Source of the DNA: Candidatus Kaiserbacteria bacterium
GTDB lineage: Bacteria; Patescibacteriota; Minisyncoccia; Phycocordibacterales; Phycocordibacteraceae
DNA length: 64,000 nucleotides
Direction: 5' to 3'
Assembly: GCA_027451665.1 (NCBI GenBank)
Contig: DAIDIW010000005.1
Coordinates: forward strand, 2,955 to 66,954
Positions 1 to 56,076 of this stretch are shown one piece after another (position 1 is the stretch's first letter; each line of letters begins with the position of its first letter). Below the pieces are notes generated by a model that ran no database searches, was not told the DNA's origin, and saw nothing but the letters and a program-made list of their open reading frames with translations. Made by a program: the position numbers and the translations under genes.

Positions 1-533
1 GCCCACGATGAGATCGGGACGATGCTGGTTGTGCCGGATGCCGCGGATACTCTGTTCGCTTGAGACGGCAGTGATGCGGGCGTCCATTTGCGAGAATACC
101 AGGGACGATGAGCCCCATTCGTTGTTCTCCTCTTGGAAGGGGCCGAGGTCGTTCTTGAGAAGCGCATTCCCCTCGAGCTCGCGACGGAGGTTCATCATGT
201 GCTGCTTCGCTTGCGCTTGCGTCTGGCAGAGGATGAGCACGAACTTTTTCTGCTGCTCGCCGAGGATGGCCCAGATTGGGTACGAGGTGGTGAAGATGGT
301 CGACTTCGCGGAGCCCCTAAAGGAGACCACAAACAGGCTCTTGATATCCTCGCGCTCGGTGAGCTGGAAGAGCTCGCGATGGAACGGGGCGGTTTCGTAC
401 TTTACGTAGTGAGCGAAGTAGAAGTGGAAGAAGAGGAAGTGACTTTGGCGTGTGATCGCCGCGCGGATGCGGCGGTCGCGGAACATCTTGTCAGCAAGAT
501 CGGGCGGCAGACCGCTAGGAGGTAGGTTCATGT
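1..533 (-). CDS. phage terminase large subunit, N-terminal ATPase part (partial, continues past window start)
   Basis: Manual minus-strand translation from ATG at 533: MNLPPSGLPPDLADKMFRDRRIRAAITRQSHFLFFHFYFAHYVKYETAPFHRELFQLTEREDIKSLFVVSFRGSAKST... Walker-A-like GSAKST and overall pattern typical of TerL. No stop before position 1. The + strand ORFs 8..409 and 133..525 are its antisense. Confidence 0.7.
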
Positions 534-988
534 TTCGGGGGATTATCGTTTGCAGGTTCTTCGCCTAGCTTCGGTTCTTGAGGAGAGGGCTCCTTCATTT
601 CCGGCGGGATTTCGACGGTTAGGGACGCGAGCCGGAGCGCCTCCTTGACCACCGCCTCCTGTTCGGGCGACAGTTCTTCCTGCGGCCCGCTTCCCGCGAC
701 CACTTCAAGGCGATCGCGGAATCTCGGGTTACGCTTCCTAAGCCAGAACGCGATGGCGTTCCAGTTCTTTTCCTTCATGAGCGTGATGAGTTGCGATTCG
801 CCGAGGTCGTTCACGATTGCCTCGCCCTCGGCGAGCGCCTCGTCCATCGCCTTGGCGAATTCCGCGTCCTCTTTGCGCCAGCGATACACGCTATTGCGCG
901 ATAGATTGAGCTTTTCGCAGGCGACCTGCACGATTGGTATCTTGCGGAGCTGCTCTATGAGTAAATCGGCGTCGCGGTTCTTCTTCAT
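515..988 (-). CDS. phage terminase small subunit (HTH)
   Basis: 157 aa. KIPIVQVACEKLNLSRNSVYRWRKEDAEFAKAMDEA motif typical of TerS. Immediately upstream of and overlapping the TerL start. Confidence 0.6.
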   Translation of the reverse strand: MKKNRDADLLIEQLRKIPIVQVACEKLNLSRNSVYRWRKEDAEFAKAMDEALAEGEAIVNDLGESQLITLMKEKNWNAIAFWLRKRNPRFRDRLEVVAGSGPQEELSPEQEAVVKEALRLASLTVEIPPEMKEPSPQEPKLGEEPANDNPPKHEPTS

Positions 989-1758
989 ACCGGTTTCGCC
1001 TTACAGCCGGTTAACTTCTCCCATCGCGCGATCGCCGTTCGCACGTACTCTTCGTCTATTTCGACAGCATAACAGCGGCGGCGCACCTGCTCGCACGCAA
1101 GGAGCGTCGTGCCGCTCCCGAGGAAGCCGTCATATACCACGTCGTCGATCCCGCTGCTGTTAAGAATCAGGCGGCGCATAAGTCCCATCGGCTTCGTTGT
1201 GGGGTGGAATTTGCTCTTTCCCGGGCGCGGATAAAAGAGTACGGACTTGTCCTTTGAGCGACGGAACTTGTGCGTGCCGAGCCAGCCGTACAGGATAAGC
1301 TCGTGTTGGGGCGCGTAGTCGAGACGACCGACGACCGCTTGCGATTTCACCCATACCAAGAGTTGTGCCGCCTTGAATCCGGCGTCGAGCATGCCGTCGC
1401 GGAGCGCCCACACCATCTTGTCCGCATTGAAGACGTACGCGGCGTTCTTGCTCGCTAAGTGCGGCGCGATTGCTTCAAGCCACGCGCGATTGAACGCGCG
1501 GTACTCCCCGTCCGACTGAATACCGTCGTTCGCGATCGCCTTGTCCTTCGAGAGCTTCGAGAAGCCGCGCTTCGACTCGACCGCCGCCACCGCATATGGC
1601 GGATCGCTCGCAATGAGCGCGGCCTTGTCCTTGCCGAAGAGACGCTTCAAGAGTTCCGGGTCGCGGCAGTCGCCTAACGCGAGGCGATGCTCGCCGAGCT
1701 GCCAGACCGTCCGCGGCTTAGGAGAGTTTGCGGGCTTTGGTGCCGGTCGCGTTTTCAT
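985..1758 (-). CDS. DNA methyltransferase, beta class (N6-adenine/N4-cytosine)
   Basis: SDPPY motif IV precedes the FLGSGTT motif I near the C-terminus. Phage packaging-module context. Confidence 0.8.
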   Translation of the reverse strand: MKTRPAPKPANSPKPRTVWQLGEHRLALGDCRDPELLKRLFGKDKAALIASDPPYAVAAVESKRGFSKLSKDKAIANDGIQSDGEYRAFNRAWLEAIAPHLASKNAAYVFNADKMVWALRDGMLDAGFKAAQLLVWVKSQAVVGRLDYAPQHELILYGWLGTHKFRRSKDKSVLFYPRPGKSKFHPTTKPMGLMRRLILNSSGIDDVVYDGFLGSGTTLLACEQVRRRCYAVEIDEEYVRTAIARWEKLTGCKAKPV

Positions 1759-3025
1759 AACGAGAAATTATTAAGTCGGTAAAGACGGGGGATGCCTCGG
1801 CAAGGTAGCAGATCCGTTTCAGTTGGTCGGCGCTGATGAGCGTGCTGCCGGATCCCCCGAATAAATCCAACACCCGGGCGCCCGGGCGCGTGCTTCGTTT
1901 AATGGGGCGCTCATGGAGCGACACGGGCTTCTGTGTCGGGTGGGTATACTCGGTTCCGGCGACGCGCTTGGCGAGCCAGATGTCGAGCGCGTCGAGGATG
2001 TCGTCGAGCAGCTTGTTGCCCGACGGTCCGAGTTCCTTGTTAAGCACTTCGGCGAAGTTCGCCCCGACGGGCGAGATCGGCGGTTTCCCCCGTGTCGCAT
2101 ATACGCACGGCTCGTAGCACTTGTTGTACGCGGCTCCCGGCACCGGATTCGCCGCTCCCTTGATCCACAGGCACACGCGGCGGTTCTCGAGGTCGAGTTC
2201 GGCGAAGAGGCCCTGCACCATGCCGATGTACTTTTGATCGCAGTAGTAATAGGCGTGGACATCGGGCTTGGCGGCTGCGAGCGCGTTCTCCATGGAGCGC
2301 TTGAGGAAGTCGCGATACTCCTCGTCCGTCTTGGCGTCGTCGACCGCGCCGCCATAGGAACCCTTGCCGCCCACGCCCTTGTCGTAGTCGAGAGAAATAT
2401 TGTAGGGAGGGTCGCAATAGATCATGTCCACGCGCTCCTTGCCGACGAGCCGCTTGACCACTTCCGGGTCGAGCGAGCTACCGCAGATAAGACGATGCGG
2501 CCCGAGCGCATACAGGTCACCGATCTTGCTTTTGGGCTTCTTGATTTTCTCCAGCTCCTTCTCGACATCGAAGTTATCCTCGCTTGCCTCGAGCGCGTCG
2601 GAGAAAATTATCGAGAGGTCGGTGTCGTCGAAGCCCGAGACGAGTAGCGTGTCTATGTCGAAATACTGCGAGAGCGCCTCATACTGCCAGTCGCCGTGGA
2701 CGCGGTTGCTCGTGAGGAGGTACTGCTCGTATTCGGACTTCGTGAGCTTGCGGTTCGGCACGCGCACGTCGATGGTCTCCTCGCCGCACCCGAGGAGTTG
2801 CAGCACGGCGACGCGCTGGTGGCCCGCGACGATCCGGTTGTCCGCGTCGATGGCCGGAACTTCCACCAGTCCGAATTTTTCGAGTGAATGAATGAGGTCC
2901 TCGCGCTGCTTGTCCGAAAGAACGCGAGGGTTCTTGTTGAATGGCAGCAGGTCGTTGACGCGGCGACGCTCGTTGTGCCACGCAAGCGGCCCGCCTCTGG
3001 GGGTAGCTTTCATAGGCGAAAGCAT
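1718..3025 (-). CDS. ParB-like nuclease domain fused to DNA methyltransferase (N6/N4)
   Basis: N-terminal ParB/Srx-like region, then CDPPYN motif IV and FGGSGST motif I. Common phage anti-restriction MTase architecture. Confidence 0.8.
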   Translation of the reverse strand: MLSPMKATPRGGPLAWHNERRRVNDLLPFNKNPRVLSDKQREDLIHSLEKFGLVEVPAIDADNRIVAGHQRVAVLQLLGCGEETIDVRVPNRKLTKSEYEQYLLTSNRVHGDWQYEALSQYFDIDTLLVSGFDDTDLSIIFSDALEASEDNFDVEKELEKIKKPKSKIGDLYALGPHRLICGSSLDPEVVKRLVGKERVDMIYCDPPYNISLDYDKGVGGKGSYGGAVDDAKTDEEYRDFLKRSMENALAAAKPDVHAYYYCDQKYIGMVQGLFAELDLENRRVCLWIKGAANPVPGAAYNKCYEPCVYATRGKPPISPVGANFAEVLNKELGPSGNKLLDDILDALDIWLAKRVAGTEYTHPTQKPVSLHERPIKRSTRPGARVLDLFGGSGSTLISADQLKRICYLAEASPVFTDLIISRYENATGTKARKLS

Positions 3026-3079
3026 AAAGAAGTAGCGGAACCGCTATGCAGCGTTTGACCGACTCTGTTATCCGTTTAC

Positions 3080-3925
3080 CTAACGTTCTCCCAGCCGTTC
3101 CCGCGTTCGAGCGACGATCGTGCGAATGTTTTGCAGGGTGAGCTCCCGATACTTTCCATGCAGTTCGGAATAGATCCATTTATCAACGGCCTTCATGGAA
3201 TTCTCCGCGCGTTTCCTGCCGGATTCTTCGCGCAGCTTTTTATATAAATCGTATATCTCCATGTCGCGCTCGAAGGTCCCCCATGCCTTGTTCTTGCCGA
3301 GGAAGTCGGGCAGACTCTTTTGTTCCTGCGCTATCCAGTCCCAGTGCCGCAGGAAATCTTCGCGCTTGGTATGCCCGAAAATTTGCACGAGTAGCTCGGC
3401 CGGGTCCCCGGGCTTCTCACGCCGCCACATGACTTTGAACGGCTCTGTCGGGTACTCGTCGATGCCGAAGAAGGTGTGATACTCGAGGAAGTCGTAGTAT
3501 CTGCGGTCACGCTGGTCTATGCCAAAGTGTTCGAGAATATCGTCAAAGACCTGCCCGTATACCGGCGGCAGAAACGACTCCTTGAATTCTTCGAGAGCAT
3601 AGAACTCCTGCGAGGACATCGTCGTTTTGTCTCCGGTGATCCGCGTCCGCGCCGCAGCCATCTCAGGACTCTTCTCGAGCTCGGTGTACCGCTTCCAAAA
3701 CGCATCGTTCCACGCCATGTACTGGGCGTACTTTTTGAACGGCCGCTTCGGGAGCGGGCATCCGGTTTCCGCGAAGCGCCTCTTGAGCAACGCGACCTTT
3801 TCCTTGAACCATGAGTCGCGGAGTATTGCTGCGACTTTGTAGTAGTTCTCGTCGTAAATTGGGCGGCGTTGTCCACCGCCCTTCACGCCACCTTTCGCTC
3901 GCTTCGTTCTATAATTGACAGGCAT
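3080..3925 (-). CDS. hypothetical protein (phage-associated)
   Basis: 281-aa ORF with GC3-rich codons. No recognisable motifs. Divergent from the XRE repressor gene. Confidence 0.45.
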   Translation of the reverse strand: MPVNYRTKRAKGGVKGGGQRRPIYDENYYKVAAILRDSWFKEKVALLKRRFAETGCPLPKRPFKKYAQYMAWNDAFWKRYTELEKSPEMAAARTRITGDKTTMSSQEFYALEEFKESFLPPVYGQVFDDILEHFGIDQRDRRYYDFLEYHTFFGIDEYPTEPFKVMWRREKPGDPAELLVQIFGHTKREDFLRHWDWIAQEQKSLPDFLGKNKAWGTFERDMEIYDLYKKLREESGRKRAENSMKAVDKWIYSELHGKYRELTLQNIRTIVARTRERLGER

Positions 3926-3927
3926 AG

Positions 3928-3944
3928 TTAGCTTGATAAGCTAA
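3928..3944. promoter_or_regulatory. 17-bp perfect palindrome TTAGCTTgatAAGCTAA, candidate operator
   Basis: Seen directly in the 33-bp gap between the divergent ORF 3080..3925 (-) and the XRE gene 3959 (+). Confidence 0.4.
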
Positions 3945-3958
3945 ATGATACATACATC

Positions 3959-4306
3959 ATGAACATGACGCTAGGGGAATTCATTCGGAGCGTGCGAGAC
4001 GAGAAGGATATTTCGCTACGCGAGCTGGCTGACAAGTTGGGGTGCTCCGCTCCATTTTTGTATGACATTGAGCTTGGGCGGCGGCACCCGTCGGACGAAA
4101 TGCTTGGCAAGATCGCTCGGCACCTCGGCATCAACAAGAACGACCTTACGAAATACGATACGCGCCCCCCAACAAAACAGATTCGCGCGAGCATTGCGGC
4201 AAACCCGCAATTTGCGCTCGCGTTCCGCAAGATGATAGATAGCGGCATGACTCCGGACGATATGATGAAGGCCGCGAAGAGCGCGGAGAAGAAGTCGAAG
4301 GAATAG
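3959..4306 (+). CDS. XRE-family HTH transcriptional regulator (Cro/CI-like)
   Basis: ISLRELADKLGCSAPFLYDIELGRRHPSDEMLGKIARHL is a classic XRE helix-turn-helix. Confidence 0.75.
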   Translation: MNMTLGEFIRSVRDEKDISLRELADKLGCSAPFLYDIELGRRHPSDEMLGKIARHLGINKNDLTKYDTRPPTKQIRASIAANPQFALAFRKMIDSGMTPDDMMKAAKSAEKKSKE

Positions 4307-4312
4307 CAAGCC

Positions 4313-5002
4313 ATGAAGCAGGTCCGCTCCAGGGGTTCAGCCACCACCCACCCTCGGTACGAGGATCACGAGATCGAGCGGATGTGCATCGACGAGCTTC
4401 AGAAGGCGGGGTATTTGCCCGATGCTCCGTCGCCGATTCGCATCGATCGCTTCATCGAGAAGCGCCTCGGAGTCACTCCGGAATATCTTGACCTACAGCC
4501 TGGCCTCCTCGGCTTCACGAAGTTCGGTCCGTACGGCGCAGAAACAATCGTCATCTCGCGCACACTCGGAGAAGATAGGGACGTCGTCGCCCAACGCCGC
4601 GTCCGCACAACGCTTGCCCACGAAGCGGGACACGCCCTGCTTCATGCCTCCCTGTTCGACGACCCGAAGAGGCAGATGCAGGTGCTATTCGACAAGGAGC
4701 ATACGGACCTTTCCAAAGTATTATGCCGCGACGTAGTGGGCTCCGGGGAAGAACAACGCGGGTACAACGGAGCATGGTGGGAGTTCCAGGCCAATCGGGC
4801 GATGGGGTCGCTACTTCTTCCCGAATCGCTCTTCCGACAAGCCGCCGGACCGCTTCTCGGCACCGGTCTCCTCGACCCAACGCCTACGGCCCTCACACCC
4901 GAGAAGAAAGCAGGTATCGAACACGTCCTTGCCGACCTTTTTGACGTGAATCCCGTGGTCGCCCGCTTCCGGCTCCACCAGCTCTATCCCTCCACCCGCT
5001 AG
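4313..5002 (+). CDS. ImmA/IrrE-family metallopeptidase (HExxH)
   Basis: HEAGHALLH zinc-binding motif. Paired with the XRE regulator as in phage repressor/antirepressor-protease modules. Confidence 0.7.
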   Translation: MKQVRSRGSATTHPRYEDHEIERMCIDELQKAGYLPDAPSPIRIDRFIEKRLGVTPEYLDLQPGLLGFTKFGPYGAETIVISRTLGEDRDVVAQRRVRTTLAHEAGHALLHASLFDDPKRQMQVLFDKEHTDLSKVLCRDVVGSGEEQRGYNGAWWEFQANRAMGSLLLPESLFRQAAGPLLGTGLLDPTPTALTPEKKAGIEHVLADLFDVNPVVARFRLHQLYPSTR

Positions 5003-5123
5003 GGCAGCGGTTTATCCACAGGCCGCCAGGCCTGTGCGTCTTGTAATTTAGGCAGAAATAGCTTACGATGACATACAAACGCACCGGGCGACAGCTCATT
5101 TATCCGCGTTAATCAATCCTTAC

Positions 5124-5975
5124 ATGGACATCGTCATCTTCAACGTAGAGCACGGGCAGAGCATTCTCTTTTATCCGCACGGAGCGCCTGGATACACCAT
5201 GCTCGTCGACTGCGGGAACACGCAAGAGTTTAATCCGATCGATACTATCCTGCATCTCCTCCCGCAGGATCAGCTCGGTCGCCGCGTTCTCAGCAACCTG
5301 GCGCTTACGAATTACGACCACGACCACTTCTCTGGGTTACCGTACCTCGCAGACAAGGTCCACATCTCAACCGTTTCCTTCGCAAAGAATCTCACATCCG
5401 GTGAGATACGCTCCCTCAAGGAGGAGTCGACCGACGCGCTCGACAAACTGTGTGAGATCAAAGATACATACATCCACGATGCCCCGCATCACACTCCTCC
5501 GTACGCACGGCAGTTCTTTCACCTTGAGAAACACCATTTCCCGAATGGTGATTATGATACGAACAACCTGAGCCAGGTGATGTTCGTCAATTATCACGGT
5601 ACGACCATATGCATTGGTGGAGACCTCGAAGCCGTCGGATGGACCGAACTCTTAAAGAACGACGGATTCAAGGAGTGGCTCCGCGCGACCGATATTTTCA
5701 TCGCGTCGCACCACGGGCGCGAGAACGGGTATGCTGAGGAGATCTTCCAGCACTGCTCGCCCGAGTGCGTCATCATCTCCGATAAGGAAATGGTGCACGG
5801 CACCCAGGACGGCATGGCTCAGACCTATGCTTCCCATGTACGCGGTAACGGCATCACCTTTGGTAACCTCCGGGCTCTCACAGGACGGAAGGTACTCACG
5901 ACGCGTAATGACGGCCATATCCTGATCAAGCTCGCTCCCAACGGAGTTCGCGCATACGCGCCGATTTCGTTATGA
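5124..5975 (+). CDS. MBL-fold hydrolase, ComEC C-terminal-domain-like
   Basis: MLVDCGNT, LTNYDHDHFSGL and IASHHGRENG align with the ComEC MBL motifs (ILIDTG / LTHADADHIGG / AGHHGS). Confidence 0.55.
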   Translation: MDIVIFNVEHGQSILFYPHGAPGYTMLVDCGNTQEFNPIDTILHLLPQDQLGRRVLSNLALTNYDHDHFSGLPYLADKVHISTVSFAKNLTSGEIRSLKEESTDALDKLCEIKDTYIHDAPHHTPPYARQFFHLEKHHFPNGDYDTNNLSQVMFVNYHGTTICIGGDLEAVGWTELLKNDGFKEWLRATDIFIASHHGRENGYAEEIFQHCSPECVIISDKEMVHGTQDGMAQTYASHVRGNGITFGNLRALTGRKVLTTRNDGHILIKLAPNGVRAYAPISL

Positions 5976-6667
5976 ACTTCGATCGCTACTTCCTCACAGC
6001 GCGCCTCGCGCCAGCGATAATCGGCTCAATCCCGTTCTTCGTCCTCTATCTCTTCTTCCTGGGCAGCGTGCTCGTGTCGCTCTTCCATTCGTTGGCGGCG
6101 GTCACCTGGGTCGGCGGCGTGTCGACCATGGCGGCCTTCATCATCCTGCTCGCATCCGTAGGTAGGTCCATCTCGAAGGACATCTTCGAGCGCCGATGGT
6201 TCAAGAGCGACGAGACCCGGATGCCGACCACCGACTTCTTGATGCATAGGAACTCGGAGTATTCAGCGCCCTTCAAACGCGATCTCCGCGAGAAAATCCG
6301 CGCGGACTTCAACATAGAGCTGCATACCGAACTTGCAGAGGCCGAGGACGAAAGCGGGGCGCGGAAGCGCATCGCCGAAGCAGTGGTGCTTATCAGGCAG
6401 CAGATGAAAGACGGTCACCTCCTCCTCCAGCACAACATCGAGTACGGCTTTTTCCGGAATCTCGTCGGGTGCTCCGTTGTGGCCGAGGTCGTCCTGCTCG
6501 CGAATATTCTTGTGTTTACGCTCGTCTCCCCGAATCACGTTGCACTCTACACTTCAATCACGCTCCTCGTTCTATATGCGATCCCTATCGCGTTCGCGAA
6601 GTCGTTGATGCGTGTGCACGGCAAGCGGTATGCCCGCGTTCTTATCCAGGAATACCTCGCGGCGTAG
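5972..6667 (+). CDS. 4-TM membrane protein with ~110-aa cytoplasmic middle domain
   Basis: Start overlaps the MBL gene stop (ATGA). Two hydrophobic helices at the N-terminus and two at the C-terminus. No known motif. Confidence 0.5.
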   Translation: MNFDRYFLTARLAPAIIGSIPFFVLYLFFLGSVLVSLFHSLAAVTWVGGVSTMAAFIILLASVGRSISKDIFERRWFKSDETRMPTTDFLMHRNSEYSAPFKRDLREKIRADFNIELHTELAEAEDESGARKRIAEAVVLIRQQMKDGHLLLQHNIEYGFFRNLVGCSVVAEVVLLANILVFTLVSPNHVALYTSITLLVLYAIPIAFAKSLMRVHGKRYARVLIQEYLAA

Positions 6668-6670
6668 TAA

Positions 6671-6997
6671 CTACCTTTTCTTCGCCAACTCCTTCCCGAG
6701 CGGCCCCTCCGCCATCTCGGTTATGGTGCCCACGAGCTTCGGCCACGACAGCGCACCGCCGTACCAGAGCAAGACGTTGTCCGTCCGATAGCGCATGAGC
6801 CGCATGAACTTCTGCCAGGTGAAGCCGTTAGCCTTCAGCTCGTCCTTCCAGTGATCCCAGAGGTACTTGGGGAGCTTATTCCCAGCCCATACGACGGCGG
6901 GCTCCCAGTTGATGCCGGGAGCGTTGTAGAGGGTGGCGTGAACGCTCTCCATCCACTTCTTGATCTCTACCGGCTCCCTTGGGGTAGGCAACTTCAT
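6671..6997 (-). CDS. hypothetical protein (W-rich, 108 aa)
   Basis: ORF convergent with the 4-TM gene. No motif recognised. Confidence 0.35.
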   Translation of the reverse strand: MKLPTPREPVEIKKWMESVHATLYNAPGINWEPAVVWAGNKLPKYLWDHWKDELKANGFTWQKFMRLMRYRTDNVLLWYGGALSWPKLVGTITEMAEGPLGKELAKKR

Positions 6998-7376
6998 ACC
7001 CCTAATATATACCCTATAGACCCTCTGTCAAAAGTGACACTCGCGTGTCCCGTTCTTGTGTCCTCTTTGTCACTTTTTGGTGCGGTACCGCAGGGCTCTC
7101 TCGAAAAGCTCGCGATCCCTCCGAGAGCGCCGGAATACGCTTGAACGGCTTGCGGGGATGCCGAAGCGCGGAGAAGGCGACGGAAGCCGTTCGCTAGTCA
7201 ACTTCTACGAATCCAGATACAGACCGTGGGGCCTCCGGCGCGGACGATAGAAGCGCGCCAAAGAATCCTTCAATTGCCTCACCTGGTGTTCTGCGGTACC
7301 GTGCGGGGGCACCAAATACTGCTAATTCAAGTGACCGAGCCGGGCTATTGGAAAGCTCGAACATCTGGGTTCAAAA

Positions 7377-8345
7377 TTGCTTATACTTGACCTACCTATG
7401 CTATTCACGAAACGCCAAGAGTCGGAACTCATAACCGCCATAAAAGGCCGCGGAGAAATCCCGCTCAAGTTCGTATACCTTGGCGAAGGTGCTCATAACT
7501 GGGACGCGCTTGCAGGTGGCCGAACCGAGAATGGTGGCATCAACAGCATGGAAGGCGTCCTGCTCACGAGTAAAGCTGCCGACTTCATTGGGTCATTCAA
7601 TGGCGTCTCTAAGATCAATGTCATTGATATCGGGTGCGGCAACGGTTATCCGGGCGTCCCCATTTTCAACGAGCTGCGGGAGCAAGGGATCGCGTTCCGT
7701 TATGTGCCAGTCGACATCAGCGCAGAGCTTCTCAACCTCGCAGAGAAAAACGTCCATGAGATGTTCCCAGATACCGAGATAAAGAAGTTCCACCTCGACT
7801 TCGAACTCGGAAACTTCTCCGACATGACCTACGCTCTCAAGAGCGATGGCTCCTCCAATCTCCTCTTGTTCCTCGGCTCTACGCTGGGCAACTTCTCCGA
7901 TCGCAACCGCGTGCTTACGAATTTCCGCGACTCAATGTCCTCCGACGACTACCTCATCAACGGGGTGGAACTCACAAACTTCGCCAAGATCAATAAAATC
8001 CTCAGCCACTACTCTCTCGATGTTGTTGGCGATTTCCTTTACTTCATTCCTGAACAAATTGGCATCAAGCGCGAGAATACGGACTTCAACGTTGTCTGGA
8101 ACGATCGCGAAAATCAAGTGGAAATGCGCCTGACGCTCAAGAAAGACGCCCGCATCACTATCGGCAACGAATCCTTCAAGCTCGAGGAAGGTGAATCTCT
8201 CTTCCTGGCGCGTTCGATGAAATTCGCAGAATGGTCTGTTACCAAACTCTTGTCCGATGTCGGATATCGCAACGAGCTTCTGACCACGAATGCTGACCGC
8301 TCGTATATGCTCTCAATGGTTCAGCCGACGCGGTATATCGTTTAA
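7377..8345 (+). CDS. EgtD-like SAM-dependent methyltransferase (Methyltransf_33 / histidine N-alpha-methyltransferase family)
   Basis: VIDIGCGNGYPG, YVPVDISAELL and LLFLGSTLGNFSD match EgtD LVELGSGTSEKT / FIPFDVDAGVL / VVFLGSTIGNLTP. Lower GC than flanking genes. Confidence 0.6.
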   Translation: MLILDLPMLFTKRQESELITAIKGRGEIPLKFVYLGEGAHNWDALAGGRTENGGINSMEGVLLTSKAADFIGSFNGVSKINVIDIGCGNGYPGVPIFNELREQGIAFRYVPVDISAELLNLAEKNVHEMFPDTEIKKFHLDFELGNFSDMTYALKSDGSSNLLLFLGSTLGNFSDRNRVLTNFRDSMSSDDYLINGVELTNFAKINKILSHYSLDVVGDFLYFIPEQIGIKRENTDFNVVWNDRENQVEMRLTLKKDARITIGNESFKLEEGESLFLARSMKFAEWSVTKLLSDVGYRNELLTTNADRSYMLSMVQPTRYIV

Positions 8346-8532
8346 TTCCCTAGACCGAGAAGCCTCCGTCTGATTTTCGGAAACTCGCCCAAAGCCCCTT
8401 AAACTGCCTCGCAGGGCAAAGTTCGAGACCGGGTCGGGGCGTGATTTATCCGCATAAGCCTACGATAAGGAGGCGCGCCAAGCGTCTTCAACAGTGCATC
8501 AGGGGGCCTTTACGTTCTATACTGCGAAGGTT

Positions 8533-9549
8533 ATGCAACGGGTACGCACCTACCTCATTTCCGCACTCATCCCCGTGTTGCTCCTTGCGCCGTCGGCGGT
8601 TTCCGCCGCATCGCTCACGAGTGCGCAATCAGGCGCGATCGTCGGGCTCTTACGTGCTTTCGGCGTCGACGCCGCTATACTTACGCGCGTCGAGAACCTT
8701 CTCGGCGCGGCAGCGGTTACGGCGATCCCCGACGCGACCGACCCAGTAACGGCTCCGGTTCCCACAAAGAGCACCCGCGTGCCGGTCATCGGCAGCGCGT
8801 ATCCATCGAGCGCTATCGGATACGATCTCTCCTTCGGCACGACCGCTTATCCAGTTGACCGATTCGGCTTCGCGGTAGTGGGCGTCAATCGGGGGAAGGC
8901 GTTCGTGCATAATTCCCGGCTTACATCTGAATACGACTGGGCGCATTTCGCATCAGCGGTCGCGCCGACCATCTATATGAATATCAACGGGCCCTATGGG
9001 AGCACCGTTGCCGGGCATCTCTCAACTCCAAAGAATTGCTCGCACGCCACGTCTACGCCCGCGAGCGATTTCACACCCACCGTCGCGAGCCGTGGCACGG
9101 AACAGTACCCCGAGCCGTCTGTCTGTGAGGCATACAACTACGGGTACAACGCTGCGCAAGACGCGTATGCATATGCGCAGAGCTCAAAAGTGCTCGATAC
9201 CTTCTGGTGGCTCGATGTAGAAGAAGCGAATAGCTGGTCCGCAAATCCGGCGGTAAACGACGCAGTAATCCAGGGGGCACTCGATTATCTGAATAAGCAG
9301 GGACTTAAGGCCGGTATCTACTCAGTGCCGTACATGTGGCGCGAGATAGCGGGCGCGGGATTCACGCCGACGGAACGCGTGAACGGAACGGCATTTCCCG
9401 TCCCGACCTGGTTCCCGATTGGCATCGCGACCCAGGTGACCGCGACGAATGCATGCAATACGGAGACGAGCTTCATTCCCGGAAGTCCGATCTGGGTACT
9501 TCAGTATGAGCTCGATCACACGGCCATAGATCAGAATATCGCATGCTGA
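8533..9549 (+). CDS. secreted hypothetical protein (signal peptide; possible glycoside-hydrolase-like fold)
   Basis: MQRVRTYLISALIPVLLLAPSAVSA signal peptide. The mature N-terminus shares a motif with the giant surface protein at 42990. Confidence 0.5.
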   Translation: MQRVRTYLISALIPVLLLAPSAVSAASLTSAQSGAIVGLLRAFGVDAAILTRVENLLGAAAVTAIPDATDPVTAPVPTKSTRVPVIGSAYPSSAIGYDLSFGTTAYPVDRFGFAVVGVNRGKAFVHNSRLTSEYDWAHFASAVAPTIYMNINGPYGSTVAGHLSTPKNCSHATSTPASDFTPTVASRGTEQYPEPSVCEAYNYGYNAAQDAYAYAQSSKVLDTFWWLDVEEANSWSANPAVNDAVIQGALDYLNKQGLKAGIYSVPYMWREIAGAGFTPTERVNGTAFPVPTWFPIGIATQVTATNACNTETSFIPGSPIWVLQYELDHTAIDQNIAC

Positions 9550-9581: not shown

Positions 9582-9587
9582 GTATAG

Positions 9588-9671
9588 TGGGCATGAGAGG
9601 ACTCGAACCTCCACCCCCTTGCGAGGACTGCGACCTGAACGCAGCGCGGCTACCAATTACGCCACATGCCC
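9588..9671 (-). tRNA. tRNA-Leu(CAG)
   Basis: Reverse complement folds as a type II tRNA: acceptor gggcatg/catgccc, D-loop AATTGGTAG, anticodon stem ctgcg/cgcag, loop ttCAGgt, long variable arm, T-loop ggaggTTCGAGTcctct. Confidence 0.85.
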
Positions 9672-9727
9672 GGCACACAAAGACAATAATCGCGAAACGC
9701 GTATGCGTCTAGCGGGTTTTGCCTCGG

Positions 9728-9800
9728 TGCGCGGTGAGGGACTCGAACCCCCGACCATCCCGGTGTAAACGGGGTGCTCTACCAACTGAGCTAACCGCGC
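9728..9800 (-). tRNA. tRNA-Val(TAC)
   Basis: Reverse complement: acceptor gcgcggt/accgcgc, D-arm tagctcagttggtagagc, anticodon stem ccccg/cgggg, loop ttTACac, T-arm gggggttcgagtccctc. Confidence 0.85.
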
Positions 9801-9902: not shown

Positions 9903-10643
9903 ATGGAACCTCGGATCCTCTATGAAGATGCGGACATACTCGTGATCGATAAGCCGGCCGGGCTTATCGTGCATAGCGACGGCCGTACGGACGAACCCTC
10001 GGTGGCCGAGTGGGCGGTCGCACACTATCCGCAGATGGAGCAGGTGGGCGAGCCGTGGACGAGCCCGCAAGGAAAGGTCGTTCCCCGTCCGGGCATCGTG
10101 CATCGTCTCGATCGCGATACCTCGGGCGTCATGATCCTCGCCAAGACGGCTCCAGCGTACGCGTTTCTCAAGCGGCAATTCCAGGAGCGCACGACGGAAA
10201 AGACATATCGGATGTTCGTATACGGCCATCCGTCGCGCGACGCGGGGACGATCGAAGCCGAAATCGTCCGTATTCGTTCCGCGCCGCCGCGCTGGGGCGT
10301 AGCGCGCGCGGGAGAGGAAAAGAGACAGCGCATTGCCGTCACGGCCTGGAAGGTGCTTTCCCGCAATCGCGACGCCGGAACAGGAGAGAAGGTCGCGTTC
10401 ATGGAAGCAAGACCGCAGACGGGTCGGACCCATCAGATTCGCGTTCACCTGAAACATCTGAATCATCCAGTCATCTGTGACAAGCTCTATGCGAAAGGAC
10501 GGCCCTGCCTACTCGGCTTCTCCCGCCAGGCGCTCCATGCCGCGACACTCAGCCTCGCGCTCCCTTCGGGAGAGACGCGCGTCTTCGAAGCGCCCTTGCC
10601 CGAAGACTTCACTCGAGCGCTCGCTGTGTGTGAGCCGGCCTAA
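9903..10643 (+). CDS. RluA-family pseudouridine synthase
   Basis: HRLDRDTSGVMILAK catalytic-Asp motif and TGRTHQIRVH motif. Confidence 0.85.
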   Translation: MEPRILYEDADILVIDKPAGLIVHSDGRTDEPSVAEWAVAHYPQMEQVGEPWTSPQGKVVPRPGIVHRLDRDTSGVMILAKTAPAYAFLKRQFQERTTEKTYRMFVYGHPSRDAGTIEAEIVRIRSAPPRWGVARAGEEKRQRIAVTAWKVLSRNRDAGTGEKVAFMEARPQTGRTHQIRVHLKHLNHPVICDKLYAKGRPCLLGFSRQALHAATLSLALPSGETRVFEAPLPEDFTRALAVCEPA

Positions 10644-10683
10644 TTTTGCTTTTTGCGGGCCCAAGTGTTACAGTCTGGCCACT

Positions 10684-11160
10684 ATGCAGAACGTGCTTAC
10701 TCCCGTACACGCCGCAGGCCGTGCCGAGCTCGGAATCCGTCCGGGCGATACGGTGCGTGTCATCCAAAACATTGTCGAGCTCAAGAAGGGGAAGGGCGCC
10801 GATAAGAAGGAGAAGACGCTCACGAATTCCCGCAAGCAGGCATTCGAGGGTCTCGTGCTTTCTGTAAAGCACGGCACGGAAGCCGGCTCCACCTTCACCG
10901 TACGCACGACGCTCTCGGGCGTTGGCGTTGAGAAGACGTTCCCGCTCTACGCGCCGACGATTGATTCAATCGAGATAGTGAAGCGCTCAAAGGTACGCCG
11001 CGCGAAGCTCTATTTCATTCGTGAGAAGGCGGCGAAGCAGGTACGTCGCCAGCTCCGCAATGCACGCATGATGCACGTGAAGAGCGATGAGACGCTCCCG
11101 CAGGCAGAGCCGGAAGCGGCGCCGGAAGCATCCGAGGCCGTTCCGGAAACGGCAGCGTAA
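10684..11160 (+). CDS. rplS: 50S ribosomal protein L19
   Basis: GDTVRV...FEGLVLSVKHGT..TFTVR..SGVGVEKTFPLYAPTIDSIEIVKRSKVRRAKLYFIRE matches the L19 consensus. C-terminal Ala/Glu/Pro-rich tail. Confidence 0.85.
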   Translation: MQNVLTPVHAAGRAELGIRPGDTVRVIQNIVELKKGKGADKKEKTLTNSRKQAFEGLVLSVKHGTEAGSTFTVRTTLSGVGVEKTFPLYAPTIDSIEIVKRSKVRRAKLYFIREKAAKQVRRQLRNARMMHVKSDETLPQAEPEAAPEASEAVPETAA

Positions 11161-11177
11161 GGTTTACGCGCGAAGCG

Positions 11178-11210
11178 CCCGGAAAGCGCTTTGCGCTTTC
11201 CGGGTTTTCG
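11178..11210 (+). terminator. rho-independent terminator (cccggaaagcgc-ttt-gcgctttccggg + T-tract)
   Basis: Perfect 12-bp stem followed by ttttcgttt, downstream of rplS. Confidence 0.5.
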
Positions 11211-11226
11211 TTTATAGTTCTCGCAC

Positions 11227-11311
11227 GCGCAGGTGGCGAAATTGGTAGACGCACTACCTTGAGGTGGTAGCCCCGGTTAACGGGATGGAGGTTCGAGTCC
11301 TCTCCTGCGCA
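11227..11311 (+). tRNA. tRNA-Leu(GAG)
   Basis: Acceptor gcgcagg/cctgcgc, D-loop AATTGGTAG, anticodon stem ctacc/ggtag with loop ttGAGgt, long variable arm, T-arm ggaggttcgagtcctct. Confidence 0.85.
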
Positions 11312-11396
11312 CCGCAATAGAAAACTGGCTGGCGCCAGGTGCCCTAAGGTAGAGCGAGTAGAGGGCGAGGGATACGCCGTTTGTTATCATGCGGCC

Positions 11397-11930
11397 ATGG
11401 CACTCTTTTCCGGAAAGGGCGATGACGGCACGACGAATGCGATCGATTCTCCCGATCGCATCTCGAAGGCATCGCCCCTTCCGGAAGCCTTAGGCACGCT
11501 CGATGAACTGAACGCATTCCTCGGATTCGTCCGTGTTCGCGCACAAGGAAGCGGCCGCATCGCGCAGATCCTCCGCGATACCCAGGAGAAGCTCTTCATT
11601 GTGCAGGCGCAGCTTGCGGGGAGCCCCATGCGATTACCCGAGAGGACGGTCGCGGGCGTCGAGGAGATCGTGAACGAAGTGGAGGAGGAGATTCCGCCCT
11701 TGAAAGGATTCTCGATCGCCGGCGGTACCGAATTATCTGCACTGCTCGATGTCGCGCGTACCAACGCGCGTCGCGTCGAGCGCCGCGCGACAGCGGTACA
11801 GGACGCGGGCATTCGCGATATTCCCGACGAGACGAAAGCGTATTTAAATCGTCTCTCCTCGCTTCTGTTCGCGCTCGCCCGTCTTGCCAATCACGAAGCG
11901 GGCGTGGCGGAAGAGAATCCTCGCTACTAG
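11397..11930 (+). CDS. ATP:cob(I)alamin adenosyltransferase, PduO type
   Basis: SGKGDDGTTNAIDSPDRISKASPLPEALGTLDELNAFLG N-terminal signature of PduO/MMAB-family adenosyltransferases. Confidence 0.65.
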   Translation: MALFSGKGDDGTTNAIDSPDRISKASPLPEALGTLDELNAFLGFVRVRAQGSGRIAQILRDTQEKLFIVQAQLAGSPMRLPERTVAGVEEIVNEVEEEIPPLKGFSIAGGTELSALLDVARTNARRVERRATAVQDAGIRDIPDETKAYLNRLSSLLFALARLANHEAGVAEENPRY

Positions 11931-14510: not shown

Positions 14511-15158
14511 ATGGATGAACAGCAGCATCAACAGGATGAAGCGGCAGATGTCTTGACGGACGGCGAGATTGGCATGGCCGATATAGCGCCGAGCGTTAAG
14601 AAGGAGATAAAGGATGAGACGAAACCGAATCCGTTGGAGGCGCGTTGGTACACTATCCACACGTATGCCGGCTATGAGGGCGCGGTGGAACGCAATCTGA
14701 AGCAGCGTATCGACTCGCTCGGCATGGAGGACAAGATTTTCGACGTGGTCGTTCCGACCGAAAAAAAGATTCGCGTGAAAGGCGGCAAGCGCGTTGTCGA
14801 AGAGGAGAAGATCTACCCGGGGTATGTGCTCGTCCGCATGATCGTGGACGACGATTCCTGGTTCGTGGTTCGCAACACGCCGCGCGTGACCGGCTTCGTC
14901 GGCTCCGGCAATACGCCGGTACCGATGGATGAAGCGGAGGTCGCTTCGCTTATGAAGCGCATGACGGCCGAGGCTCCGAAGCATCGCATCGATCTCATGA
15001 AGGATGATCCGGTCGTCATCGCGGACGGCCCCTTCAAGGACCTCGAAGGCAAGGTGGGCGACATCGACGAAGAGCGCGGGAAGGTGAAGGTCATGGTCTC
15101 CATGTTCGGCCGTGAGACGCCAGTCGAGCTCGATTTCTTGCAGGTCCGCAAGCTGTAG
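14511..15158 (+). CDS. nusG: transcription termination/antitermination factor NusG
   Basis: RWYTIHTYAGYEGAVERNL NGN domain and C-terminal KOW (GPFKDLEGKVGDIDEERGKVKVMVSMFGRETPVELDF). Has an N-terminal acidic extension. Confidence 0.85.
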   Translation: MDEQQHQQDEAADVLTDGEIGMADIAPSVKKEIKDETKPNPLEARWYTIHTYAGYEGAVERNLKQRIDSLGMEDKIFDVVVPTEKKIRVKGGKRVVEEEKIYPGYVLVRMIVDDDSWFVVRNTPRVTGFVGSGNTPVPMDEAEVASLMKRMTAEAPKHRIDLMKDDPVVIADGPFKDLEGKVGDIDEERGKVKVMVSMFGRETPVELDFLQVRKL

Positions 15159-15199
15159 TAGCGTTTTCCCTCATTTTCTAGTAAAGTCACGACACTCAT

Positions 15200-15619
15200 A
15201 TGGCAACCGTAGTAAAGAAGATCAAGCTCCAGATTCCGGGCGGCGCAGCGACGCCTGCGCCGCCGGTAGGTACCGCGCTCGGCCCGGCTGGCGTGAACAT
15301 CGGTCAATTCGTGACCCAGTTCAACGACGCGACCAAGGATAAGCGCGGCACCATCATCCCGGTAGAGCTCTCGGTCTACGACGACCGTTCGTTCACGTTT
15401 ATCCTAAAGAATCCGCCGATGTCCCGCCTCATCCTGAAGGCGCTCGGCGTCGAGAAGGGTTCGAGCAAGGCGCCGCAGCAGAAAGTCGGCACCCTGAACC
15501 GGGCGCAGGTGAAGGCTATCGCCGAAGAGAAGATGCCGGATTTGAACGCCGGTTCGCAGGAGGCCGCTGAGCGTATCGTCGAAGGTACGGCGCGTTCGAT
15601 GGGCGTCGAGGTGAAGTAA
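15200..15619 (+). CDS. rplK: 50S ribosomal protein L11
   Basis: [39 protein letters not shown] matches the L11 consensus. Confidence 0.9.
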
Positions 15620-15635
15620 TGATTTCTCTTGAAAA

Positions 15636-15665
15636 GGGCCGGAGCAGCTGCTCCGGCCCTTTTTG
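15636..15665. terminator. bidirectional terminator (gggccggagcag-ctgctccggccc + T-tract)
   Basis: Perfect 12-bp stem directly after the rplK stop. Also terminates the convergent oxygenase gene. Confidence 0.6.
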
Positions 15666-15668
15666 CAT

Positions 15669-16427
15669 TCAGAGATGCGCAATAGCGGTATGTGCAAAGA
15701 ACACGCTCGCGCGTCGTCCGTCCGGTTCGCAGGCAGGGACTTCGTAAGTCCCATGTACGATCGGCCTGACAAGCCCGCCGGTCATCTTATAGAACTTGAG
15801 TCCAGGGAAGACGGCAGCGTAGCCCTTCGGGATGTGAAGCCGAAGCCGTTCCTGGGTGTCATGCGGAATGACGAAGAATCCCGGTCCCGTCTCGCTGTGG
15901 TGCAGCGAGACGAATGCGCGATCCGTATGAGGCGTGGCGGTCTCGACATCGTTACCGCGACGTCTTGCGTACACAAGCCCTCGATTCGGGTGGCGCAGAC
16001 CAAATGACTTGAATGAATCATAGATCCCCCGCTCGGGCATCAACTGTTCGAATGCACGCATGAGCTCATCAGTGAGCCGATACAGTGCATACCAGGACTC
16101 GGCTTGTGCGCGGAAAAAGTCATCCCATTCGTGTACTGGCGCGCCTTGCGACGCGAGTATGTCACGCGTCTTCGGCTCGAAATGGAAGACGTCTTTTCGC
16201 TCATCAGTGCGGTACTGTGAGAGCCCTCCGTCGTACTGACCTTTATGGTCGGGTTCGTACCCCCAGGCATGTTCCTTGATAGCGCCCTCTTGCCGCAAGC
16301 GGCCGAGGCGCGCGAGCTCTGCAAGCATGAAGCTAGTCTTCTCGGGACAATCCGGGGGGATGGGTACGAATCCGATACCCCCGTTTACCACGGCATACGC
16401 CGCGTCATGGATATCGGTCCTCCGCAT
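15669..16427 (-). CDS. 2-oxoglutarate/Fe(II)-dependent oxygenase family protein
   Basis: HTD (HxD) ... VHG (distal His) ... RAS (2OG-binding R-x-S) arranged as in the 2OG-Fe(II) oxygenase double-stranded beta-helix core. Confidence 0.55.
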   Translation of the reverse strand: MRRTDIHDAAYAVVNGGIGFVPIPPDCPEKTSFMLAELARLGRLRQEGAIKEHAWGYEPDHKGQYDGGLSQYRTDERKDVFHFEPKTRDILASQGAPVHEWDDFFRAQAESWYALYRLTDELMRAFEQLMPERGIYDSFKSFGLRHPNRGLVYARRRGNDVETATPHTDRAFVSLHHSETGPGFFVIPHDTQERLRLHIPKGYAAVFPGLKFYKMTGGLVRPIVHGTYEVPACEPDGRRASVFFAHTAIAHL

Positions 16428-16509
16428 GAGCGGTCTCCTCGTAAGATCCTCTAGGCGCCAGTATAGGCGGTCAGAGGGGTCGTTTGTCCCCAGGTGGGGA
16501 AAGCGTCAC

Positions 16510-17022
16510 TTATCGGCCGAGGTCAAGGAAACGGTAGGCAAGGCCATCTTCCGACGCATGCGGCTCATCATGGAGCACGGTCGTGAAGTCGTCCGTATAT
16601 GCAGGGAAGAAGGTGTCACCTGTAGCATCGCTCTCGACAAGCGTGAGATAGAGCCGATCCGCAAACGGGAGCGCTGCGCGGTAGAGTTCTCCGCCGCCGA
16701 TGACGAAGATCTCGTCGGCACCCTCAGCGCGTTTGGCGAGCGAGAGCGCCTCGGGCAGCGAATGTGCGACCACTGCGCCCTCCGTGGGGTAGTCCTCGAT
16801 GCGGGTCACGATGATGTTCGTGCGTCCAGGCAAGGGCCGAAACTTCGACGGCAAGGAATCCCAGGTCTTCCGCCCCATGATGACCGGGTGGCCCTGCGTG
16901 AGCTGCTTAAAGCGCGCGAGATCTTCAGGAAGTTGCCAGAGGAGCTTGCCATCTTTGCCGATGGCGCGCGTATCCTTTCCGAATGCGGCGACGAGCGCGA
17001 TGTGCGAAGGGGGGTTTGGCAT
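16510..17022 (-). CDS. folA: dihydrofolate reductase
   Basis: IALVAAFGKDTRAIGKDGKLLWQLPEDLARFKQLTQGHPVIMGRKTWDSLP...FVIGGGELY are classic DHFR motifs. Start taken at MPNPPSHIALV; the ORF could extend to 17067. Confidence 0.8.
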   Translation of the reverse strand: MPNPPSHIALVAAFGKDTRAIGKDGKLLWQLPEDLARFKQLTQGHPVIMGRKTWDSLPSKFRPLPGRTNIIVTRIEDYPTEGAVVAHSLPEALSLAKRAEGADEIFVIGGGELYRAALPFADRLYLTLVESDATGDTFFPAYTDDFTTVLHDEPHASEDGLAYRFLDLGR

Positions 17023-52611: not shown

Positions 52612-55885
<3,274 letters not shown>

Positions 55886-55957: not shown

Positions 55958-56076
55958 GGTTCTGGTGCCTTGTCGGAGGGGTCACACCCGTTCTCTTTCC
56001 GAACACGGCAGTTAAGCCCTCTTGAGGCGATGGTACTCACCTTTACCGGTGGGGAGAGTAGCTAGGCGCCAGAACC
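55958..56076 (+). rRNA. rrf: 5S ribosomal RNA
   Basis: ggttctggtgcc...ccgaacacggcagttaagc...ggcgccagaacc, with 5'/3' helix I complementarity and conserved loop C/helix IV motifs. Confidence 0.85.

Follow-up and report, generated by a model that had tools for sequence, protein, structure and literature searches.

ComEC-like metallo-beta-lactamase (MBL) proteins are proven DNase effectors in the Hachiman, Avs, Lamassu and DRT (defence-associated reverse transcriptase) systems. In phage lambda, the genes cI-rexA-rexB encode a cleavable repressor, then a soluble protein of about 280 amino acid residues and a membrane protein with four transmembrane (TM) helices, and this set acts against other phages. 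The phage defence candidate (PDC) systems were collected from genes embedded in BREX (bacteriophage exclusion), DISARM (defence island system associated with restriction-modification) and type I restriction-modification (R-M) loci (Payne et al. 2024, bioRxiv 10.1101/2024.01.29.577857). According to papers that cite it, another study placed Csx27-family proteins in operons with components of natural transformation and predicted that those encoded with such components form ssDNA channels (Makarova, Gao, Zhang, Koonin 2019, FEMS Microbiol Lett 366:fnz088). Finally, papers that cite van den Berg et al. (2024, Cell Host Microbe 32:1427) name the 6A-MBL system or 'MBL pathway', consisting of E2-E1-JAB and an MBL, as an anti-phage defence with experimental confirmation. 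Here we describe a pair of overlapping genes on a 64-kb stretch of the Candidatus Kaiserbacteria contig DAIDIW010000005.1, which is called the window in the following. The first gene (5124..5975, plus strand) encodes a cytoplasmic ComEC-type MBL-fold metallo-hydrolase of 283 residues, a predicted DNase of the PADLOC family PDC-M48B, and the second (5972..6667, plus strand) an inner-membrane protein of 231 residues with 2+2 TM helices, a probable remote member of the Csx27 superfamily. The pair is a variant of the PDC-M48 / Csx27-associated MBL systems with an XRE/ImmA control and a divergent Csx27-like partner. We propose, with a probability of about 0.55, that it is a derepressible, membrane-tethered DNase module against phages or other mobile DNA, with a layout like lambda cI-rexAB.

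The ComEC-type MBL motifs, which a preliminary description of the locus had read from the 283-residue protein, were confirmed by Pfam, a profile search, a fold match and an alignment of 30 homologues. In Pfam the protein matched Lactamase_B above the gathering score (E 3.6e-5). When a profile of the 30 homologues was compared with solved structures, ComEC/Rec2 chains were found with E-values from 1.9e-6 to 1e-3, and RNase J was a further weak sequence-profile match. The AlphaFold model (pLDDT, the predicted local distance difference test, of 90.5) had its best match among the PDB structures to the beta-lactamase-like domain of ComEC (9ic4, E 1.1e-11, TM-scores 0.64/0.68). Across the homologues D29, N63-x-D65-x-D67-H68, D167 and H196-H197-G-R were invariant or nearly so, and together with NNxS, the residues D29, N63 to H68, D167 and H196-H197 fall on the metal site of ComEC. 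By sequence and by fold, ComEC/Rec2 is therefore the closest solved relative, and D-x-D-H, NNxS, GD.E and HHG are common to both. In contrast to ComEC/Rec2, the window protein stands alone with its 283 residues and has neither the OB domain nor the multi-TM competence domain, and its family is found in mobile or defence-related contexts. The first histidine of motif 2, H-x-D-x-D-H in ComEC, is replaced by an invariant asparagine in the family. The NCBIfam model ComEC_Rec2 (TIGR00361) gave 16.9 bits, with the cut-off at 190.

Among the defence models of PADLOC, PDC-M48B was matched over residues 1-273 of the 283 (PDLC04674, E 1.6e-33; PDLC04675, E 3.6e-27). PDC-M48 is likewise a two-gene cassette of a small protein and an MBL, and the match of the window MBL to PDC-M48B covers the full length. 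The two differ in that the TM protein of the window has no match to PDC-M48A, that the listed order is FAM_01875>>FAM_00178 whereas in the window the MBL gene precedes the TM gene, and that PADLOC would call no system at this locus. The N-terminus of the MBL gave weak, partial matches to the models of LmuA, RTasMBL and Avs1a. The trypsin-MBL modules (HamM/HamMAB, Avs1a, Lamassu-MBL and DRT-MBL) have the same ComEC-like MBL fold, which is the DNA-degrading effector there. Unlike in these modules, neither the window nor any of the loci inspected showed a trypsin-like protease, free or fused, as a neighbour, and the partner is a membrane protein. Since the matches are weak and partial, the window MBL belongs to a different subfamily from the trypsin-MBL effectors.

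The second gene starts within the end of the first. The ATG at 5972-5974 and the TGA at 5973-5975 overlap as ATGA in 'tcg tta tga act', as had been noted before, and the TM gene is translationally coupled to the MBL gene. Hydropathy analysis of the 231-residue protein showed two N-terminal and two C-terminal TM helices, in agreement with the preliminary description, and placed the soluble domain between them at residues 66-165. The short loops are uncharged, and the central domain contains 17 K/R residues and the C-terminal tail 5. By the positive-inside rule, the central helical domain of about 100 residues is thus predicted to face the cytoplasm. The AF2 model (pLDDT 88.9) is a compact helical bundle for which no informative channel match was obtained. 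Conserved motifs of the family are GRSISK..FE, MPTT.FLL and LLQHNIEYGFxRNL.

A search of Pfam, PADLOC, PHROGs and NCBIfam returned no match for the TM protein. Partner variants from four related loci (L003, L016, L018 and L019) matched the Csx27 model with E-values of 3e-9 to 1e-6, and the TM family of the window aligned with these variants over the full length (hhalign 95.9%, E 5.5e-9). The TM protein is therefore regarded as a remote member of the Csx27 superfamily by a transitive link through the variants. The L003 variant alone also matched PDC-M48A, though weakly (E 0.0055). The remote-homology and structure checks that had been suggested earlier thus led straight to ComEC for the MBL, and to Csx27 for the TM protein by way of the partner variants only. 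With the MBL assigned to PDC-M48B and its partner remotely to Csx27, the earlier impression that the pair resembles no nameable system, and may be novel, was not supported.

Like Csx27, the TM protein has four predicted TM helices and a similar size. The setting is different. No cas gene, such as a type VI-B1 (cas13b) locus would hold, came up among the 12 open reading frames (ORFs; 515-9549) that were each compared with one or more of PADLOC, PHROGs and NCBIfam, and no CRISPR-like tandem array occurs anywhere in the window. The regulators also differ, being XRE/ImmA in the window and LexA-like in its relatives instead of WYL-HTH or E2-E1-JAB. The TM family comprises 124 close relatives and, by profile search, 1861 clusters. 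In one relative of 500 residues (P0332), a domain of the PNP_UDP_1 phosphorylase superfamily is fused to the same 4-TM module, and this domain matches the 'PN-superfamily' effector of the cyclic oligonucleotide-based antiphage signalling system (CBASS) and the PDC-M60C model. No other fusion, and in particular none of an MBL to the TM protein, was found when the best 150 of the 1861 TM relatives were inspected. P0332 suggests that immune enzymes other than the MBL can also be attached to the membrane module.

The conservation of the pair was followed in 28 distinct other loci from many phyla with an MBL of >44% identity, 27 of which were informative. In 25 of the 27, a multi-TM protein is encoded directly 3' of the MBL or past one second MBL, and all of these partners except one have the same architecture and the motif N..Y.[FLM].R[NDG] at the entry of TM3 (24 of 25). 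The two genes therefore form a conserved unit, and they lie together far more often than chance would allow. In L029 (8857-9537), the membrane protein between two MBL genes is a different one with a soluble N-terminus and C-terminal TM helices; it showed no Csx27-like motif and no family match. The inverse order, TM gene before MBL gene, was confined to two distant loci, L023 and L026. In L002 the MBL-TM cassette occurs twice, 5 kb apart (10001-11486 and 15038-16520), with a serine-recombinase sequence before each copy, so that the element has either been duplicated in tandem or undergone a nested insertion. A 125-residue ORF directly follows the TM gene in L039 (9560-9937) and L041 (9571-9948). 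The two ORFs are 54% identical to each other and may be an extra component of some variants; the window does not have it.

L040 encodes orthologues of the window MBL and TM protein (52% and 37% identity) immediately after a gene for an E2-E1-JAB fusion and another MBL. The same E2-E1-JAB/MBL/pair arrangement is present on the Polaromonas plasmid pPNAP01, and an E2-E1-JAB gene also adjoins the orthologous pair in L037. Csx27-family operons are reportedly also found with ubiquitin-system fusion proteins, as is the case in L037 and L040. The 230-residue Polaromonas partner is 42% identical to the partner variant of L001; as a single sequence it gave no signal with the TM family of the window in hhalign. 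The arrangement of L040 and pPNAP01 is probably the 6A-MBL system, from which the window differs in having no E2, E1 or JAB gene.

Two further loci, L021 (8720-15679) and L022, are set apart from these. They encode a 36%-identical MBL with a second MBL before it and proteins of 556 and 887 residues after it, whose N-termini look like Mod and Res of type III R-M. A gene for 889 residues like that for the 887-residue protein lies upstream in L008. The arrangement of L021 and L022 would be the 'embedded' situation that defines the PDC candidates.

Directly upstream of the pair and in the same orientation, ORF coordinates and Pfam both place the regulator genes that had been described there. The first (3959..4306, plus strand) encodes an XRE-family helix-turn-helix (HTH) repressor that is CapH-like (Pfam HTH_3, E 2.4e-13; PADLOC capH, E 1.2e-12, near full length), the second (4313..5002, plus strand) an ImmA/IrrE-type M78 metallopeptidase that is CapP-like (Pfam Peptidase_M78, E 4.3e-6; PADLOC capP, E 1.6e-6). 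The DNA-damage-responsive regulators CapH/CapP and ImmR/ImmA are likewise encoded as an XRE HTH protein and then an M78 peptidase, directly upstream of effector genes, with the difference that the genes regulated in the window are not CBASS. The peptidase presumably removes the XRE repressor, and by analogy to CapH/CapP the cleavage might be triggered by DNA damage.

In the related loci this slot is filled differently. A LexA-like S24 repressor is encoded immediately upstream and co-directionally in 14 of the 28 loci and divergently in one more, so that 15 of the 28 have it where the window has XRE and ImmA, and these repressors are up to 67% identical between phyla. Elsewhere the regulator position is occupied by a serine recombinase or by the E2-E1-JAB module. 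The core of the pair is constant, and the control module is swapped between LexA-like, XRE/ImmA and E2-E1-JAB. The earlier reading of the XRE-ImmA genes as a lysogeny switch was right in that the two regulators are present; they are better understood as one of several swappable cassette regulators of the DNA-damage type than as a lysogeny switch alone. Between the ImmA stop and the MBL gene lies a spacer of 121 nt (5003..5123, plus strand), a possible promoter or operator of the pair on weak evidence. Within 5003-5180, TTTATCC(A/G)C(A/G) repeats at 5011, 5099 and 5170 and a GC hairpin at about 5017-5035, 3' of the ImmA stop, are possibly an operator and a terminator before the MBL gene. A simple promoter scan of the spacer gave no sigma-70-like match.

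The function that we propose for the pair would run as follows. The repressor would keep the operon low until DNA damage or phage-induced RecA/ssDNA signals led to its cleavage and to derepression. The MBL would then dock on the cytoplasmic domain of the membrane protein, which would hold or gate it at the membrane, and there it would degrade the entering phage DNA or, as in abortive infection, DNA indiscriminately. The membrane protein might in addition perturb the membrane. The island that carries the cassette would gain by excluding competitors, as lambda does with cI-rexA-rexB. The likeness to lambda lies in the gene layout on a temperate element and is a functional analogy only. Neither window protein has a match to a Rex family in Pfam or PHROG, and RexA is not an MBL enzyme. 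The analysis itself shows the folds, the conserved motifs and pairing, the remote relation to Csx27, the regulators and their exchange, the contexts and the place at the island end; the DNase activity, the contact between the two proteins, the induction by DNA damage and the anti-phage phenotype are inferences.

Several observations weigh against this proposal. PDC-M48 is a computational candidate only, and there is no experiment on its MBL family. The Csx27 link of the window TM protein is only transitive, with no direct match to a hidden Markov model, and PADLOC, including its PDC-M48A and Csx27 models, matched 0 of 31 members of the TM family. Equating the core with 6A-MBL draws on papers that cite the system and on gene content. 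The neighbourhoods that were inspected number a few tens, without a formal enrichment statistic. In the phage and viral collections, one weak match was found in IMG/VR (30% identity) and one among the GenBank phages (22%), and a view of the pair as commonly phage-encoded had no support from these two collections. The second-best fold match of the MBL model is the pneumococcal phosphorylcholine esterase Pce (E 7.5e-10), and with an asparagine at the first metal-ligand histidine the metal or the substrate could differ from those of ComEC.

Another function that has to be considered would serve the mobile island itself. On induction by DNA damage, the tethered nuclease would degrade host or helper-phage DNA, and the life cycle of a satellite-like element would profit from the nucleotide supply or from interference with the helper. 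The right end of the island could be mapped. The DNA of the window is 94-97% identical to L042, L043 and L044 up to 7312/7314, and beyond it the copies continue into three unrelated flanks: an EgtD-like methyltransferase gene in the window, a GlpM-like/S20/RuvA region in both L042 and L043, and a further one in L044. The island therefore ends at 7312-7314, with the terminal sequence GGTGCCCCCGCACGGTACCGCAG at 7291-7313(-), also written for 7291-7314 as GGTGCCCCC(GCAC/TAAA)GGTACCGCAG. A search for this terminal repeat elsewhere in the window found none. The tRNA-Leu/Val genes at 9587-9800 had been a candidate for the attachment site and are ruled out by the position of the island end.

At this end the pair is the penultimate cargo, followed by a convergent gene for 108 residues (6671..6997, minus strand) and by the non-coding right end of the island (6998..7314). 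The small convergent ORF of the preliminary description is real, with 11 homologues and a strong promoter-like site at 7031-7004(-) that scored 11/12 in the promoter scan. It adjoins the pair in L042-L044 and lies next to it in none of the remaining loci, which ruled it out as a third component. Rather than closing the block, it lies outside the conserved module and only travels with this island.

To the left of XRE, an island operon on the minus strand encodes a 281-residue protein of unknown family (3080-3925) divergently from the repressor gene, then a ParB-N6/N4 DNA methylase (1718-3025), a second N6/N4 methylase (985-1758) and a small-terminase-like (terS-like) HTH protein (515-988), the last three with Pfam and PHROG matches. 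It ends in a large-terminase-like (terL-like) N-terminus (1-504) that is cut by the window edge and is recognised by its identity to proteins of L034 and L027. The stretch 4-504(-) is 53-55% identical to a 509-residue protein encoded after the terS-like gene of L034 and to the L027 counterpart of this protein. The left part of the island lies outside the window and probably has a serine recombinase. A terS/ParB-methylase block is found 1-3 kb from the MBL-TM pair in L003, L005, L009, L012, L027, L034 and L041. The complete element of L041 spans only about 10 kb, with a serine recombinase and without capsid genes, and for this reason the island looks like a satellite-type element. The phage-derived setting of the preliminary description thus holds for the position of the pair at the end of a phage-like island, whereas the phage collections are almost empty of the family.

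These genes speak for a role in the life cycle of the island, since in at least 7 loci the cassette comes together with terS/terL-like genes, ParB-methylases and serine recombinases, at least one of these elements (L041) is small and capsid-free, and the regulators are of the prophage induction type. However, the regulator-MBL-TM cassette also occurs without terminases. In L038 (1939-6978), a Tn7-like element (TnsA-like, Mu-type transposase, TniB, TniQ) carries LexA-MBL-MBL2-TM as its cargo, which adjoins an Eco57I-type R-M gene and a D12 methylase. In another locus HaeII R-M and Vsr lie beside the cassette, and one locus has AbiH, S24 and nSTAND NTPases with serine recombinases on either side. 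In addition, E2-E1-JAB can take the place of the repressor. Apart from these cases, the defence and mobile contexts include Shedu with a serine recombinase in one locus and an SMC-like ATPase with TrwB in one. Because of the terminase-free contexts and the E2-E1-JAB variants, we regard the pair as an autonomous module and not as a gene of the island life cycle, for which the chances seem rather low.

The genes beyond the island end are recorded here for completeness. An EgtD/EasF-type histidine-specific S-adenosylmethionine-dependent methyltransferase (Methyltransf_33, E 1e-31) is encoded at 7377-8345 (plus strand). The gene at 8494-9549 (plus strand) encodes a protein of 351 residues whose N-terminal segment is hydrophobic; its PHROG match is endolysin-like and weak.

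A second alternative takes the pair as a split, minimal ComEC-like gate, in which the 4-TM protein would be the channel for ssDNA and the MBL would break down one of the strands, for DNA import or nucleotide scavenging instead of immunity. This would be in line with ComEC as the sole solved relative of the MBL and with the ssDNA channels that Makarova et al. (2019) are reported to have predicted for Csx27-family proteins encoded with transformation components. It would also suit the hosts. The 938 relatives of the MBL, typically 50-60% identical, are spread across unrelated phyla, with Saccharibacteria, Moranbacteria, Peregrinibacteria, Ignavibacteria, Bacteroidota, Burkholderiales and Bdellovibrionales among the hosts, and many hosts are bacteria of the Candidate Phyla Radiation (CPR), for which scavenging would be attractive. 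An exact-sequence look-up of the window MBL itself returned no record. Yet no competence genes (comEA, dprA, pilus) were found beside the pair in any inspected locus, and the neighbourhoods, for which the preliminary description had left the choice between competence or housekeeping and mobile or defence settings, proved to be of the mobile and defence kind. The distribution is patchy and mobile, with 97%-identical copies at multiple insertion sites. The MBL, a cytoplasmic protein, lacks both the OB and the competence domain of ComEC, and the TM model is a compact bundle without an informative channel match. We consider such a gate improbable.

The window also carries a 23S rRNA gene (52623-55874) and a 5S rRNA gene (55961-56074), and no 16S gene is present in its 64 kb. 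The 23S match is 3252 nt long against a model of 2925 nt, suggesting an insertion of about 330 nt. Insertions in the 23S gene and 23S/5S units without 16S are both common in CPR/Patescibacteria, and this fits the CPR/Patescibacteria hosts of the closest homologues.

About equally improbable is an MBL that acts as a membrane-proximal phosphodiesterase, with lipid head groups, polymers like teichoic acid or a signalling nucleotide as the substrate and with the TM protein as the true effector or as a presenter of the substrate. The fold match to Pce and the asparagine at the first metal ligand, both mentioned above, point in this direction, as do the membrane-protein partner and the fusion of the TM module to a PNP nucleosidase-type domain. 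Against it, the sequence profiles match only ComEC and, weakly, RNase J, and the defence MBLs whose models weakly match the N-terminus of the window MBL are DNases by experiment. An addiction pair that stabilises the mobile element, with the MBL as toxin and the TM protein as antidote or the reverse, would fit two small, translationally coupled genes on mobile elements but is very improbable, as no likeness to a known toxin or antitoxin was found in four libraries (Pfam, PADLOC, PHROGs, NCBIfam), the frequent extras (a second MBL, E2-E1-JAB, a dedicated repressor) suit a regulated defence better, and the MBL of L020 (10001-10863) is split into two ORFs by a frameshift or as a pseudogene while the LexA-like gene, a 466-residue second MBL and the TM gene are intact, so that loss of the MBL is tolerated.

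For the derepressible, membrane-tethered DNase, a more far-reaching interpretation can be drawn, to which we give little credence at present. The MBL would combine with its Csx27-like partner into a split, ComEC-like 'DNA shredder', which SOS-type signals would switch on and which would destroy nucleic acid crossing or approaching the inner membrane, and the membrane module would be a platform on which varied immune enzymes dock, the MBL nuclease in the window, a PNP nucleosidase in the case of P0332 and Cas13b for type VI-B1. If true, this would be the first mechanistic handle on the Csx27-family proteins. The pair of an MBL and a Csx27-like protein is widespread, from CPR bacteria to Proteobacteria and Bacteroidota, and its labels have so far been computational, namely PDC-M48 and the DNA-uptake/degradation system that Makarova and colleagues reportedly predicted. 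To these labels the window locus and its relatives add that the two-gene core is invariant, that the control module is swapped and that the pair travels as end-cargo on small terminase-bearing islands of CPR bacteria. In conclusion, the pair offers a testable entry to the role of the Csx27 family, to a ComEC-type nuclease at the membrane in immunity and to the licensing of defence by DNA damage.

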